Shown here: positions 9,681-50,282 of the stretch, in pieces
Layout: every line of letters begins with the position of its first letter
How positions within the stretch are numbered: the stretch's first letter is position 1
NCBI GenBank assembly: GCA_964016885.1
Contig: OZ024740.1
Coordinates: 75,020,001 to 75,084,000 of the forward strand
DNA length: 64,000 nt
Origin: Eledone cirrhosa
Taxonomy: Eukaryota
Direction: 5' to 3'
Position numbers and translations under genes: made by a program
Notes under the pieces: model-generated
The model's input: the letters and a program-made list of their open reading frames with translations, nothing else
Database searches by the model: none
What the model was told of the DNA's origin: nothing

Positions 9681-9787
9681 GACACACATACATACATACA
9701 TACATACATACATACATACATACATACATACATGTATATATATATTCATATATATATTTTTTTACATATATATATATATATTTACAT

Positions 9788-10570
9788 AAATGGAAAAAAT
9801 GAAATTTCATTTCTCACTCTTAGTACGGCTGATACTTAAATATAAGTATGTATACGTACGTACATATATGTATACAGACGTACAGTAGTATGTATATACA
9901 TACATACATGCATACATATATATATATGTACGTATGGATTTACCGAACATTTATTATAATGCTCGGTTTGTTTGTAAACAAACATCCCGAATTAAGCCGT
10001 ACAGTGTTCGGCAACCATCTTTGCCATCTTGTTCAACACTGACAAAGGAACGATGAACTAGTTTCTAGCTTATTAGCTGTCATCAGCACTGTATACCTTC
10101 CTGTCAGTTGATTCAACGGTTGAAAGTATATACTTTCCTTATGCATATTAACCGCTGTATGTACATATACATACTTATATTTAAGTAACAGCCGTACTAA
10201 GAGTGAGAAATTAAATTTCATTTTTTCCATTTATCGTTTTCGGTACCCCGGCCGACTAACTCACGCGATATGCAAATTAGGCTGCTCAGCCGTTAATATG
10301 CATAAGGAAAGTATATACTTTCAAACGTTCAATCAACTGACAGGAAGGTATACGGTGCTGATGACAGCTAATAAGCTAGAAACTAGTTCATCGTTCCTTT
10401 GTCAGTATTGAACAAAACGGCTTAATTTGGGCTGTTTGTTTACAAACAAACCGAACATTATAATAAATGTTCGGTAAACCCATACGTACATATGTATATG
10501 TGTGTACATGTATGTATATATACATACTACTGTACGTCTGTATACATATATGTATGTACTTATACATACT
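9788..10570. mobile_element. Family A HHR repeat, inverted multi-part insertion
   Basis: ~430-bp unit present in both orientations; HHR on the + strand at 10352-10394. Confidence 0.85.
10352..10394 (+). ncRNA. Minimal type I hammerhead ribozyme (family A)
   Basis: ACGGTG-CTGATGA-CAGCT-AATA-AGCTA-GAAAC-TA-GTT-CATCGT. Confidence 0.75.
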
Positions 10571-11002
10571 TATATATTTACAGATATACATATATCTGTA
10601 CACACACATATATATATATATATACTTATATGAATACGTTTAAACGGATGTACATACACAGAAACACACACACAGGCACATAAATATACATATATACATA
10701 TATATATATATAAATATATATATTTACATGCATATATACATACACACGTACATATACACATACATACATATACACATACATGCACACACACAGAGACAAA
10801 AACACAGCCACTCACACACACACACGTATATATATATATATAATACGTGTAATGTATGTGTATCTGCATGTGTATGCAATAAGATGTGAACATCACAGGA
10901 ATGAGTCATGAAGAAATGACACAATCTATTCAGTGGAAGTTTGAGGGGGTGTCTTGAACACAATAGAAGCTCTACACCATTATTGTCGTTTGTCCTATTG
11001 TT

Positions 11003-20206: not shown

Positions 20207-22835
20207 TGAGAACAGCAACGATAGGAGTAATACAAACACTGCAATAATAGGAGTAACTCGAATGTTGCAACAATCGGAGTAACACAATCAGTGCAACGAT
20301 AGGATATCAGAAACACTGCAAGGATAGGAGTAACACAAACACTGCAACGATAGGAGTATCAGAAACACTGAAACGATAGGAGTAACACAAACACTGGAAC
20401 GATAGGAGTATCAGAAACACTGAAACGATAGGAGTAACACACACACTGCAACGATAGGAGTATCAGAAACACTGCAACGATAGGAGTATCAGAAACACTG
20501 CAACGATAGGAGTAACACAAACACTGCAACGATAGGAGTATCACAAACACTGCAACTATAGGAGTAACACAAACACTGCAACGATAGGAGTATCAGAAAC
20601 ACTGCAACGATAGGAGTAACACAAACACTGCAACTATAGGAGTATCAGAAACACTGCAACTATAGGAGTATGAGAAACACTGCAACGGTAGGAGTATCAG
20701 AAACACTGCAACTATAGGAGTATCACAAACACTGCAACGATAGGAGTATCAGAAACACTGCAACGATAGGAGTAACACAAACACTGCAACGATAGGAGTA
20801 TCACAAACACTGCAACTATAGGAGTAACACAAACACTGCAACGATAGGAGTATCAGAAACACTGCAACGATAGGAGTAATACAAACACTGCAACTATAGG
20901 AGTATCAGAAACACTGCAACGATAGGAGTATGAGAAACACTGCAACGATAGGAGTATCAGAAACACTGCAACTATAGGAGTATCACAAACTCTGCAACGA
21001 TAGGAGTAACAGAAACACTGCAACTATAGGAGTAATACAAACACTGCAACTATAGGAGTAATACAAACCCTACAACGATAGGAGTAATACAAACACTGCA
21101 ACTATAGGAGTAATACAAACACTGCAACTATAGGAGTATCAGAAACACTGCAACTATAGGAGTAATACAAATACTGCAACGATAGGAGTAATACAAACAC
21201 TGCAACTATAGGAGTAACACAAACAATGCAACTATAGGAGTAATACAAACACTACAACTATAGGAGTAATACAAACACTGCAACTATAGGAGTAATACAA
21301 ACACTACAACTATAGGAGTAATACAAACACTGCAACGATAGGAGTAATATAAACACTGCAAATATAGGAGTAACACAAACACTGCAACGATAGGAGTAAT
21401 ACAAACACTGCAACTATAGGAGTAATACAAACACTGCAACTATAGCAATAATACAAACACTGCAACTATAGGAGTAATACAAACACTGCAACTATAGCAA
21501 TAATACAAACACTGCAACTATAGGAGTAATACAAACACTGCAACTATAGCAATAATACAAACACTGCAACTATAGGAGTAATACAAACACTGCAACTATA
21601 GCAATAATACAAACACTGCAACTATAGGAGTAATACAAACACTGCAACGATAGGAGTAATACAAACACTGCAAATATAGGAGTAACACAAACACTGCAAC
21701 TATAGGAGTAATACAAACACTGCAACTATAGGAGTAATACAAACACTGCAAATATAGGAGTAATACAAACACTGCAACTATAGGAGTAATACAAACACTG
21801 CAACTATAGGAGTAATACAAACACTGCAAATATAGGAGTAATACAAACACTGCAACTATAGGAGTAATACAAACACTGCAACGATAGGAGTAATACAAAC
21901 ACTGCAACTATAGGAGTAATACAAACACTGCAACTATAGGAGTAATACAAACACTGCAACTATAGGAGTAATACAAACACTGCAACTATAGGAGTAATAC
22001 AAACACTGCAAATATAGGAGTAATACAAACACTGCAACTATAGGAGTAATACAAACACTGCAAGTATAGGAGTAATACAAACACTGCAACTATAGGAGTA
22101 ATACAAACACTGCAAATATAGGAGTAATACAAACACTGCAACTATAGGAGTAATACAAACACTGCAACTATAGGAGTAATACAAACACTGCAACGATAGG
22201 AGTAATACAAACACTGCAACGATAGGAGTAATACAAACACTGCAACTATAGGAGTAATACAAACACTGCAACTATAGGAGTAATACAAACACTGCAACTA
22301 TAGGAGTAATACAAACACTGCAACTATAGGAGTAATACAAACACTGCAACTATAGGAGTAATACAAACACTGCAACTATAGGAGTAATACAAACACTGCA
22401 ACTATAGGAGTAATACAAACACTGCAACTATAGGAGTAATACAAACACTGCAACTATAGGAGTAATACAAACACTGCAACTATAGGAGTAATACAAACAC
22501 TGCAACTATAGGAGTAATACAAACACTGCAAATATAGGAGTAATACAAACACTGCAACTATAGGAGTAATACAAACACTGCAACTATAGGAGTAATACAA
22601 ACACTGCAACTATAGGAGTAATACAAACACTGCAACGATAGGAGTAATACAAACACTGCAACTATAGGAGTAATACAAACACTGCAACTATAGGAGTAAT
22701 ACAAACACTGCAAATATAGGAGTAATACAAACACTGCAACTATAGGAGTAATACAAACACTGCAACGATAGGAGTAATACAAACACTGCAAATATAGGAG
22801 TAATACAAACACTGCAACGATAGGAGTAATACAAA
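20207..22835. repeat. Satellite with 26-bp unit ACTGCAACTATAGGAGTAATACAAAC, about 100 copies
   Basis: Direct tandem periodicity with no unique spacers. Confidence 0.95.
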
Positions 22836-23799: not shown

Positions 23800-25456
23800 T
23801 AAACGAAATAAATGAAACGAAATTTCATTTCTCACTCTTAGTACGGCTGTTACTTAGATATAAGTATGTATACGTACATACATATATGTATACAGACGTA
23901 CAGTAGTATGTATATATATATATATACATACTACTGTAGGTCACCAGTTGGTGCTACTGGTAACATGTATCCCAGTACAACCTGTCTCATGGTCGGGTCG
24001 TTGGCGACTAAACTGGCAAGCCCACCAAGGTTTCTTGATGAAGAGGGTGACTTTGGACATCCTGCAGGACTAAAAACAAAACCTGTCAAAGGGCAAAAGG
24101 GCTCTTAAGAGTCAATGGCCATCCAAAATCACCGGGAGAGATGACCCCTTAGCCTTTGTCAAAGCAGAATTCTAAGAGAAGGAAAACTCTGATATAACAC
24201 CTGCAACCCTGATGGTATCCAATGATGTTGACTTGTTCTTCTTTTTGGTAAATATCATCTTGGTTAAGAGAGTGAGACTGGCTTTGTGCAGTGCCTTTGC
24301 TCACTATAAAAGCTTCACGGTACAGGCATTGCTTCATATCTGGAGATCTCTCTGCACTTGTCGTCACATGGTACCATGGGCCCAGCACTGTGTCAATAAT
24401 TGTCACAAGTGTAGTGTTTGTACCAGAGTTTTCAAGTCGCTGTCTGGACTAAAAAGTCACACTCGTTCAGCGCATCGGTAGGGGTTCTCCTACATGGATA
24501 TAAAGTAGTGGCCATACTTGAAAACGAGTTGGCAGCCACCATATATATACATACATGCACACATATATATATATATGTACGTATGGATTCACGGACCATT
24601 TATTATAATGCCCGGTGTGTTTGTAAACAAACATCCCAAATTAAGCCGTACAGTGTCTAGCAACCATCGTTGCTCATTTGTTCAACACTGACAAAGGAAC
24701 GGTGTATTAGTTTCAAGCTTATTAGCTATCGTCAGCAACGTATACCTTCCTGCCAGATAGTTGAACGTCTGAAAGTATATACTTTCCTTATGCATATTAA
24801 CGGCTGAGCAGCCTAATTTGCATATCGAGTGTTGAACAAATGAGCAACGATGGTTGCTAGACACTGTACGGCTTAATTCGGGATGTTTGTTTACAAACAC
24901 ACCGGGCATTATAATAAATGTTCGGTGAATCCATACGTACATATATATATGTGTGCATGTATGTATATATATATACATATTACTGTACGTCTGTATACAT
25001 ATATGTATGTACGTATACATACTTATATTTAAGTAACAGCCGTACTAATAGTGAGAAATGAAATTTCGTTTCATTTTTTCCGTTTATCGTTTTCTGTACC
25101 CCGGCCGATTAACTCACTCGATATGCAAATTAGGCTGCTCAGCCGTTAATATGCATAAGGAAAGTATATACTTTCAGACGTTCAACTATCGGGCAGGAAG
25201 GTATACGTTGCTGACGATAGCTAATAAGTTTGAAACTAGTACAGCGTTCCTTTGTCAGTGTTGAACAAATGAGGAACGATGGTTGCTAGACACTGTACGG
25301 CTTAATTCGGGCTGTTTGTTTACAAACACACCGGGCATTATAATAAATGTTCGGTGAATCCATACGTACATATATATATATATGTGTGCATGTATGTATA
25401 TATATATATACATACTACTGTACGTCTGTATACATATATGTATGTACGTATACATA

Positions 25457-25460
<4 letters not shown>
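23800..25460. mobile_element. Family A complex (direct, inverted and tandem units) interrupted by an RTE-like insert
   Basis: Sense switch near 24830; head-to-tail unit junction near 25080; HHR motifs near 24698-24742 (-) and 25205-25247 (+). Confidence 0.85.
23938..24540 (+). mobile_element. ~600-bp non-autonomous RTE-like element
   Basis: Encodes CHKCSVCTRVFKSLSGLKSHTRSAHR*; second copy at 9083-9680; ATATATATACATAC on both sides may be a TSD. Confidence 0.65.
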
Positions 25461-25493
<33 letters not shown>

Positions 25494-40945: not shown

Positions 40946-40975
<30 letters not shown>

Positions 40976-40976
<1 letters not shown>

Positions 40977-41359
40977 CTTAGGGTAAACATTGATGCAATT
41001 CAAATCAAGCACTCAACGTCTCAACGTACTTATTCCACATAGGAGTGACGGAGTAAATATCGAATAAGGAAAAGCGAAGTAGTTTCAGATGTTCAAGTCC
41101 TTTAATAATAATGCTGTGATATATATTTCAATGGCGAAAGTGGCCACACTGTTCTGTGGGCCAGTCTCGCGACATCGTCAGACAGCTTGTTACATAATAA
41201 GGTTATGTTTCCGAGGCAATCCAAATTGAATCGACATGAGAACGGACGAAGTATGTGCTTTTGGGTTCTTCATCCGTTCCCCTGTGAGTACCAATTTACC
41301 CCCACTGGTCTGCGCAGGCGCAGGTCCAGGGGGAAGTTGACCATTAGCTACCGCAGATT
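40976..41359 (-). mobile_element. HHR element, family G; HHR at 41113-41186 (-)
   Basis: GCTGT-CTGACGA-long stem II-GAAAT-ATAT-ATC-ACAGC; TTGAGTGCT at 41008-41016, then (TA)n. Confidence 0.7.
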
Positions 41360-41705
41360 TACTAGTTTCAAGCTTATTAGCTATCGTCAGCATCGTATAC
41401 CTTTCTGTCAGATGGTTGAACGTGTGAAAGTATATACTTTCCTTATGCATATTAACGGCTGAGCAGCCTAATTTGCATATCGAGTGAGTTAGTCGGCGGG
41501 GCGCACCGAAAACGATAAATGGAAAAGAATGAAACGAAATTTCATTTCTCACTCTTAGTACGGCTGATACTTAAATATAAGTATGTATACGTACATACAT
41601 ATATGTGTACAGCCATACAGTAGTATGTATATATATACATACATGCACATATATATATATATGTGTACGTATGGGTTTACCGAACATTTATTATAATGTT
41701 CGGTT
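41360..41705 (-). mobile_element. Permuted family A unit ending at the HHR cleavage site
   Basis: Homology stops after GAAACTAGTA; spans the head-to-tail unit junction near 41520. Confidence 0.8.
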
Positions 41706-41924
41706 ATATATATATATATGGGAGTGCGTGTATATGTGTATGTATATATATTGATTTATATATATATGTATACATAAGATATTTTCAACTTGTACAAAAG
41801 TCCCTAGGGATATAATTGATATTGTATATATATATTTATTTATTTATATATATATGTCTGTGTGTGTGTGTATATATATACATATATATGTATACATATG
41901 TACATGTATGTATGTATATATACA

Positions 41925-47435: not shown

Positions 47436-48045
<610 letters not shown>

Positions 48046-49922
48046 TTGGCTCGCGAGTTTCGTGGATGAAGGTCTGTCCGGGTGCGTAAAGGTCGACCGG
48101 TGGTTCAGGAAGCGTTCCTTAAATCGGCCCTCCGCCATACCCACATAGAATTTGACCTCCTGTGGTTGATTTGGTCGGTTGGAAGTGACCACAGCTTCAT
48201 AAACTACAGCGGGTAAGTTGCATTGCTGTTGAAGGGGACAAGCTTCGGGCTTACGGAAAGAGTACCCTGGTGGGGTGTTGCTCTTAGGGCTGTTGGTGAT
48301 GTGGGCCTTCATGTTTTAGCGCAGGAGTATCCTAGTTTTACTTTGCGTCGGTTAAAGATGGAGCGGTATTTATGACCTATGGGAAAGTGTTTATCTAAGA
48401 GGGCTAGAAATCTTTTGCCTACATTGGTTTTAACGTTGAGTGAGAAGGGAGGAGAGAACTAGATAGTTTGTCTATTGTTACGCTTTCTTTTCTTGTTGCT
48501 GTTGTTGCTAGTGGGCGAGTAAGTGATAGGTTGCGAGAAGCCGCTGTTAGTTAACGCCGTGTTATAGTAGGGTGCCGCCCTGTCAAAGATAGCCTTTTTA
48601 GAGGAGAGGTTTGAGATTCTAGTACTGATATTATTTACGAAGTTTCTAAAAACAGTGGGAGGGTGGCATGAGTCCTTGTGAATGTAATTGAGTTTTTCGT
48701 TTAGCTTATGGAAGGGTCTGTAGGTGCGTGTGCGAAGGTCTAAATTAATGTCTAAGAAATCTACGCTAGAGAGGTTGGTAGCTACTGTTATCCTAAGTCC
48801 TAACTCATTGAAGGTAGAAGCTAAGTCTTTTTTAAACCGGTCGAGGTCGTGACCACTTTTGTGGCTCGATAAGGTCAGTCCATCGTCTCGGTATATTCCC
48901 GTGTGGAAGTCCGGGAATCTAACACGTAATATGTCTAAAATAAATAGGCCAACCAAGTCGCATACGTCAGCACTGTCAAACGATCCCATGGAGACATCGA
49001 ATAGGTCTGAAGTTGTATACTTCTTTGCCCAGGCCACTCCGTCGTTGAAGAGGAGGCTTTTCCGGCAGTGAGCAATGATTTCCCTGTCTAAACCATCGAT
49101 GGTAGTGTAAGTGGTAGCAAAGTCCAACGCTTTGTTTAACAGGGTCTCTGAGATCGACGGGTAAAAATCAACTATGTAAAACTGTGTGAACTTCGCTTTT
49201 TTGGATTTGAAGGAGTTAAACCACTTAATTACGGAGTCGCTGTTCTCCCACTGGGGCAGGTTGGACTTGGTCCTAATGGTCTTAACTATGTTTCTAAGTA
49301 TGGCCTTACTGACTAGTCCCATATCTGTGCGTGCCGGGTTTATTAGTCTACATGTGAGGTTAGAAGTAAAGTCTACCTTGTGATCTTTCAGGGCGAGGAA
49401 CGCCTCCCGCGTAGCTAGAGATTGTAGTTTCTTATCTACCTTAAGGGCGGTGGCAAGTTCCTTGGCTTCTGTATTAATGTCGTGGTAGGCCATAGGGTTA
49501 GCTTTCTTATATTTGGAAGTAATAGCGTTATGGGCCAGGTGGCGGAAAGTGGTATTGTCCACTTCGTAAATATTATTAGTTTTGTCGGAAAGAACGGAAG
49601 TGTTATTAGAAGACCTAAATTTCTTAATATCATTTCTAAGTTTAGTTTGAAAGGTGTTAGGGTGTTTGCGAAAGGAAATGTTAGCGAATAAGTCAAGAAG
49701 GTCCGCCTCGAAAGGAGCAAGTTGAGTTACCTTATGAAGGCAGGCTCTCGATTTCAGGTTGAATGTGTTATTGGTGCCTGTAATTTTGCCGTCAAAAGCT
49801 AGGGCTCGCCAGCTTAAGCGTCTGACGACATCTTCCGCTTTTAGTAGGAGAAGCTTTTGGTAAACATGGTTGGAGGAAGTGGGAATGTTCTTCAGGGAGT
49901 AATCCAGTTCGTATAAATCCAT
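48046..49922 (-). pseudogene. Penelope-like retroelement ORF: RT plus C-terminal GIY-YIG endonuclease (probably Hydra-clade), decayed
   Basis: YSLKNIP, CRLINPA, IVDFYPSI, FDVSMGSFD, YRDDGL, VDFLDI, then I*FSPPFS...NVGKRFL...HFP...[13 protein letters not shown] and CPLQQQC...VVYEA...KFYVG...FKERFLNH. Premature TAG at 48459-48461, frameshift near 48315, endonuclease end truncated. Confidence 0.9.
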
Positions 49923-50282
49923 ACTGACGTTGATGAGACACAAAATTGTGTAGGGATATAGAGACCGCTCTCAGGGTAGGAAGCCAAACTTGCACGTGGT
50001 GAAGAATCTGCTAAAAGCCAAACTTCTACGTAGTGAAGAGAATCTGCTGACCGTTGCTGGAGACGTATATAGTGGTAGAACACTGGAAGGTAATATCCGT
50101 AGTGGTAGAGCACTCAGTTCATGGGACGAGTTAGGTAGAAGTAGTTACACAACAGTTAGTTCACCATACCGAGAACAATTGTTTCACCTTAGCGGATCCT
50201 CAGCTCGTAATGGAGATGGTTATACGGAACAGGAAGGACAACCGTACGAACGCGCATGCGTACCATGATATATATATATATA

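Follow-up and report, generated by a model that had tools for sequence, protein, structure and literature searches.

A fusion between two hammerhead-bearing repeats, which switches from family A to family G at 41360/41359 on the minus strand, raises the question of whether this locus keeps a trace of ribozyme cleavage in vivo. The window, i.e., the whole stretch of 64,000 nucleotides analysed here, is G000:C1:75020001-75084000 in a (TA)n-rich genome of 3.0 Gb. An earlier note had read the junction as a genomic fossil of self-cleavage, in which a reverse transcriptase (RT) that started on family G RNA at a (TA)n tract jumped onto the 3' end of a ribozyme-processed family A monomer, and in which both families used that RT. 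As described below, the junction is real and its coincidence with the cut site probably a matter of chance, and by itself it is too ambiguous for a claim of in vivo cleavage.

The junction and the two repeat families

The minus strand at the fusion reads cgatg CTGACGA TAGCTAATAAGCTT GAAA CTAGTA and then switches to AATCTGCGG; that is, the A piece terminates as CTGACGA-stem II-GAAACTAGTA and family G follows directly (Table 1), as the earlier note had described. The maximal match to family A stops exactly at GUA, the predicted cut site (41360). However, at the join point TTTA|AATC is found in the majority of the 29 nearest G copies and TGA|AATC in a minority, so that the break may coincide with the cut site or precede it by 1 or 2 nt, and the claimed position right after GUA holds for the maximal A match while the TA overlap permits an earlier one. 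In the fused motif the 3' strand of stem I is missing and stem I cannot form, and the fold energy was -7.4 kcal/mol compared with -14.1 kcal/mol for an intact copy. This strand is intact in the other nine A hammerheads of the window, which continue CATCG or CAGCG, as had been noted, or CACCG.

The A piece (41705-41360) begins at unit position ~87 after a cut site, runs to the predicted cut site that follows and fits within a single cut-to-cut monomer; it also crosses the head-to-tail point at 41516/41515, and the G piece reaches a (TA)14 tract at 40976-40949, both in agreement with the earlier description. The join point lies 242 nt upstream of family G's own predicted cut site. Relative to the commonest letters of the nearest copies, the A piece differed at 3/221 and 10/344 positions (1.4-2.9%) and the G piece at 3/375 (0.8%), suggesting that both pieces are young, and no age gap between them was evident on this measure. 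The A-G join was the single case of its kind both in 28 genome-wide matches for A breaks at the cut site and in 30 matches for G breaks near the join point, and in these matches and the nearest G copies we found no other G copies that naturally carry A sequence upstream, a situation that the earlier note had named as incompatible with its reading. Both flanks of the insert are other repeats or microsatellite, from which the empty site is not recoverable.

Table 1. Features at and around the fusion, in window coordinates
Feature	Position	Strand	Remarks
A/G junction	41359..41361	-	TA overlap of 2 nt; break on the predicted cut or 1-2 nt short of it
Family A piece, non-coding hammerhead repeat	41360..41705	-	345 nt
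Usual family A 3' end = head-to-tail point CCATTTA|TCGTTTT	41515..41516	-	read through here
Family A hammerhead, 5' part	41360..41395	-	stem I 5' strand, CUGACGA, stem II, GAAA, palindromic stem III, GUA
5'-truncated family G copy with usual 3' end	40977..41359	-	private 8-nt duplication
Type I hammerhead of family G, intact (long stem II)	41113..41186	-	predicted cut after 41118; fold z-score -4.2
(TA)14 target tract at G 3' end	40949..40976	.	putative priming site; most G copies end likewise
Short (TA)n tract at 5' end of A piece	41706..41720	.	

Family A is a non-coding unit of 420-430 nt (~425) that occurs singly, in tandem and in inverted pairs. A 23-nt core of the unit, with GTA as its last letters, is present 12,642 times without mismatch in the genome, and no ordinary open reading frame (ORF) of at least 170 aa was found in the unit. 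Copies commonly terminate ~275 nt past the motif at (TA)n; among 15 A pieces in 84 kb, this usual 3' end was found in 5 and other ends in 10, and the pieces are heavily rearranged. The hammerhead core (CUGANGA, GAAA and UH) was invariant in 10/10 A copies of the window except at N7 and H17. Pairing was observed in 94.9% of 99 cells of the motif versus 22-34% when the alignment was slid, and stem III is the palindrome ACTAGT. Covariation of the stems was weak, with one pair changed on both sides and 20/500 shuffles reaching the covariation score, and a search of Rfam gave no hammerhead family match even at E<=10. Judging from its sequence, the motif appears to be a type I minimal hammerhead of the PLE type, with predicted cleavage after GUA or GUU. 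Family A has tandem non-coding units with one hammerhead per unit at 420-430-nt spacing, as in non-LTR retrozymes, and also the features of PLE derivatives, namely a fixed internal 3' end past the hammerhead, a microsatellite target and inverted 5' copies. A and G both appear to be Penelope-type hammerhead repeats.

Head-to-head inverted A pairs whose 5' ends meet centrally were observed in the window at 9786-10575, 24541-25466 and 47545-48044, a layout that priming of both target strands would produce. An array at G000:C2:383001052-383038264, in which at least 19 family A copies with one common stem-adjacent variant are spread over 37 kb, is a local expansion of the family. Several copies elsewhere carry small changes. 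In an inverted pair (L342/L343, G000:C2:365192754-365193299), an A hammerhead that is intact in all other respects is interrupted by 19 nt of foreign sequence precisely between GTA and CAGCG; in another copy (L317), a duplication of 19 nt is inserted at this position. Short A-internal deletions start at the cut site with zero overlap in three copies (L315, L318 and L319), and an identical 6-nt loss in stem III was observed in three unlinked copies (L333, L349 and L351), where a direct AC repeat is present and slippage could be the cause.

Family G is also a high-copy repeat, with 2,717 candidates genome-wide (40 scored), and no second copy was found within the window. Its unit is ~1.34 kb (L055) and its longest stop-free frame is 97 aa. 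In the loci examined, neither an RT/GIY-YIG ORF attached to A or G nor an ORF flanked by A or G as pLTRs was found, and four ORFs tested against Pfam gave zero matches. A 503-aa stop-free frame at 48462-49970 (minus strand) of the window, which was Pfam negative, had ESM Atlas neighbours at 0.96-0.98, part of whose members carry PF26215 and RVT_1, and is likely a fragment of a PLE ORF; a further hammerhead motif lies just upstream of it at 50203-50182. The window contains in total ~29 CTGANGA...GAAA motifs from at least 8 different repeat families, and more hammerhead families were observed at other loci examined. By eye, a TTTTCC run lies a few bases before the end at (TA)n in families A, G (shorter end) and Z (see below) and in the partner at L080, and is possibly a common RT start signal. 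The window also holds a 26-nt minisatellite of ~101 copies with strong strand asymmetry at 20215-22835.

Breakpoints around the family A cut site

We collected breakpoints with two pattern scans designed to catch A copies whose register is lost somewhere from -10 to +5 relative to the cut site. The GUA scan gave 126 matches, the first 100 of which were taken; 19 tandem duplicates were reduced to one, so that 82 were examined, including 29 in-register point variants and 1 chance match that was dropped. The GUU scan gave 25 matches, all examined, with 10 in register. Among the matches examined, 67 breaks were found, of which 57 were within -10..+5. The cut site was the commonest break position overall, with 11/57 breaks versus 3.3 per other position (p=0.001, binomial test against a uniform null). 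On the other hand, A breaks were found at nearly every position around the motif, and neighbours of the cut site were not low (6 at -2, 5 at +2, 5 at +3, 7 at +4 and 4 at +5). Note that breaks were placed by maximal extension, which favours positions ending in TA, and that the automatic categories contain some errors: the script classed a few A-derived rearrangements as foreign, and two of its entries may be copies with point mutations.

When three fusions that join one cut site to another (described in the last section) were removed, 8/54 breaks were on the cut site (p=0.026), and when (TA)n joins were removed as well, 5/45 were on it versus 2.9 per other position (p=0.18). Of the breaks with a foreign partner that remained, 3/25 were on the cut site (p=0.23); these counts are small, and an excess of up to about half is still compatible with them for joins like A-G. 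The peak at the cut site is carried by the three cut-site-to-cut-site fusions and the (TA)n joins. The breakpoint peak at GUA that the earlier note had predicted was thus found at a modest height overall, but not in the class to which its own example belongs.

Overlaps of at least 2 nt were found in 9/33 background breaks with a known partner, versus 7% expected by chance from A/G position pairs. Zero-overlap joins were not enriched at the cut site (7/15 versus 14/33 elsewhere, p=0.51). If linear cleaved monomers were the templates, A 5' ends should pile up at the cut. In a scan for A 5' starts, in which 100 of 210 matches were examined, 10 of the (TA)n-joined starts were in the class compatible with the cut site, as compared with 9 each at -5 and +2, and no run-off peak of A 5' ends was present at the cut site. 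The A 5' ends follow TA/AT overlap, suggesting that most templates were not linear cleaved monomers.

Origin of the A-G join

We favour, with fair though not high confidence, an ordinary microhomology switch or deletion through TA that happens to coincide with the predicted cut of family A. In this explanation, target-primed reverse transcription would start at (TA)n from G's internal start site, and the incomplete G cDNA would pair through TA with uncleaved A RNA, i.e., an internal template switch. Alternatively, the cDNA might pair through TA with an A copy situated next to it in the (TA)n nest, in which case the last ~275 nt of that copy would be lost. The same product would arise if a deletion at the DNA level later fused A and G copies that lay side by side. 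Because TA is common to A and the nearest G copies, an ordinary switch is sufficient, and neither ribozyme cleavage nor a shared RT would be needed at this locus. The 2-nt overlap, the entry into G far upstream of its own cut site, the spread of A breaks over nearly every position around the motif, the loss of a significant peak once (TA)n and double-cut joins are removed, the frequent overlaps at background breaks, the tracking of TA/AT overlap by (TA)n-joined A 5' ends and the much rearranged state of A pieces all support it. The available text on a reconstituted PLE (PMC11167929) likewise describes an RT that in vitro initiates internally on a mainly unprocessed RNA substrate, with cleavage dispensable and no RNA reads that start or end at the cut site, and the absence of a 5'-end peak in family A agrees with this.

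Several observations stand against the microhomology explanation. The cut site is the commonest break position, also when the double-cut fusions are removed; those fusions make it likely that cleaved A ends are formed and joined; the A piece does not extend beyond a single cut-to-cut monomer; and the A and G pieces are similarly young, as a single event predicts. Moreover, homology between A and G around the join is unremarkable, with symmetric windows of 5-15 nt per side ranking in the top 10-27% and those of 20 nt in the top 2.6%. Extended A/G homology as a driver was considered separately and is weak; the top 1.2% was reached only with a window picked post hoc.

Apart from the homology values, these same observations, together with the exact end of the maximal A match at GUA, are what the model of the earlier note has in its favour. 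According to this model, G's RT runs off a 5'-broken G RNA, is held by a TA clamp, jumps to the hammerhead-cleaved 3' end of A RNA and copies 345 nt. End-to-end jumping of this kind is carried out by R2 and other non-LTR RTs. However, joins of this class show no significant excess at the cut site, A 5' ends lack a run-off peak, and G 5' breaks were not clustered at the join point, where no truncation hot spot was found in 30 matches; in addition, no demonstration of such a jump for a PLE RT was found in the texts consulted. We therefore regard a jump onto a cleaved A end as unlikely at this locus, although the cut site is indeed where A copies break most often. The further claim of a shared RT was rejected, as it does not follow from any mechanism considered: an end jump, RNA ligation and DNA deletion would all proceed without recognition of A by G's RT.

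RNA ligation is less probable still. Here, cleaved A RNA would be ligated through its cyclic-phosphate end to a G RNA fragment with a 5'-OH by an RtcB-type enzyme, and the RT of G would copy the chimera in one pass. As far as the available text of each paper goes, RtcB ligates U6 RNA with a cyclic-phosphate end to L1 RNA truncated at variable points, prior to retrotransposition (PMC6789731, with further precedent in PMC13247085), and it circularises retrozyme monomers, with minor dimers, in vitro (PMC7229834); the chemistry also fits two zero-overlap fusions described in the next section. Ligation, however, needs no overlap, whereas the A-G join has one of a length that arises by chance in the 7% of position pairs given above, and cut-site breaks are not enriched in zero-overlap joins. 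An assembly artefact, in which two repeats were misjoined, is very improbable, given that a misjoin requires long common sequence where only 2 nt are present and that both pieces have private variants and normal (TA)n ends; among the matches listed (~30 of 900), no run contig bridged the junction and none contained an empty-site joint, which is neutral because repeats fragment these contigs. Note that the weights given to the four explanations are judgements rather than computed posteriors, and that the prior for a cleaved-end origin was set between about three tenths and somewhat under a half.

Fusions at both predicted cut sites and known systems

In a wider census, 28 matches for A breaks at the cut site were obtained and classified by hand; we estimate that the census pattern catches roughly half of random partners. 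Eight matches were foreign joins, 6 were (TA)n-like, 10 were A-internal, 3 were point changes or small indels, and 1 was really at -2. In 3/8 foreign joins the partner was entered exactly at its own predicted cut site, while no foreign partner with known context at other break positions was entered at a cut site. Two of the three, L218 (G000:C1:64633311-64633345, minus strand) and L239 (G000:C7:90896450-90896484, minus strand), join GUU-form A to family Z at both predicted cut sites with zero overlap, since position -1 is A-specific and +1 is Z-specific. The third, L094 (G000:C2:83248852-83248886, minus strand), joins A to family Y, a hammerhead with a U3-A8 core, at both predicted cut sites; GTA is common to the two families, and a homologous switch within the common motif letters could account for this case.

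Family Z (L242-L261) has a degenerate hammerhead-like motif with more than 2,400 copies, in which U3-A8, GCAA for GAAA, C13 and a weak 3-bp A-U stem I were found; one listed copy has GAAA. In its native context the motif ends GCAACCGGTA|AAAAC (2,408 pattern matches). The U3-A8 core variant is present in both Y and Z, and is a natural hammerhead variant already described in the consulted part of PMC4209133. Apart from the two A|Z fusions, no other family was found fused to the Z start (7 matches). Reciprocal fusions, with a foreign hammerhead 5' half on an A 3' half, were absent from 26 matches; these comprised 23 A copies in which stem III is altered and 3 cases with other upstream sequence that lacks a hammerhead.

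The chance of at least 3/8 cut-to-cut joins was <=1.3e-4, and that of at least 2/7, with the two A|Z fusions counted as one event, was <=3.6e-3 (both post hoc, for a unit of at least 300 nt with four positions allowed). L218 and L239 differ at 4/100 Z and 1/40 A positions and may go back to a single event. Together they are the best candidate fossils of in vivo cleavage and end joining, and all three double-cut fusions likely reflect cleavage in vivo, after which the ends were joined by an RtcB-type ligase or by an RT that jumped from end to end. From these three loci alone, we consider it likely that PLE-type minimal hammerheads cut in vivo and that products of different families are joined end to end and retrotransposed. 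It is rather doubtful that the A-G join of the window belongs to the same cleave-and-join class as one event. The general idea of a genomic fossil of self-cleavage put forward in the earlier note is thus supported by these fusions, but not by the locus for which it was proposed.

The double-cut fusions bear on the question of whether Penelope-type minimal hammerheads cleave in cells; such hammerheads cleave poorly in vitro according to the accessible text of PMC4209133. Interfamily fusions of this type would provide a purely genomic read-out of in vivo cleavage in any hammerhead-rich animal genome. If this is true, genomes keep a readable fossil record of ribozyme activity, and families have a route by which to swap ribozyme halves. 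No interfamily fusions at hammerhead cut sites were described in the literature that we searched (titles and abstract openings, outside subscription papers).

The comparisons below follow the available text of each source. Like the minimal hammerheads in PLE pLTRs (PMC4209133; PMC11167929; architecture compared in PMC8557442), those described here have a short palindromic stem III and (TA)n targeting, and the repeats share with PLEs a fixed 3' end downstream of the hammerhead and inverted 5' pieces; they differ in that no RT/GIY-YIG ORF was found attached to A or G at the loci examined. Non-LTR retrozymes, or non-autonomous PLEs (PMC7229834; bioRxiv 10.64898/2026.07.22.740005), likewise have non-coding units, tandem and dispersed, with one type I hammerhead each, as in the ~425-nt units of A, whereas G is longer at ~1.34 kb; the available parts of these accounts do not mention interfamily fusions. 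In R2 (PMC3774820), a ribozyme cut site is likewise readable from genomic junctions, but there an HDV-like ribozyme shapes all 5' junctions, in contrast to the 5' ends of family A. The RtcB chimeras of U6 and LINE-1 (PMC6789731) likewise combine a processed RNA 3' end with a 5'-truncated retroelement whose 3' end drove insertion. Nearly all U6/L1 joins are at the U6 end, whereas only a minority of family A breaks are at the cut site; moreover, the A end would be made by a hammerhead, and the A-G join has a 2-nt overlap. The double-cut fusions, in turn, would extend the formation of RtcB-type chimeras beyond U6 and L1.
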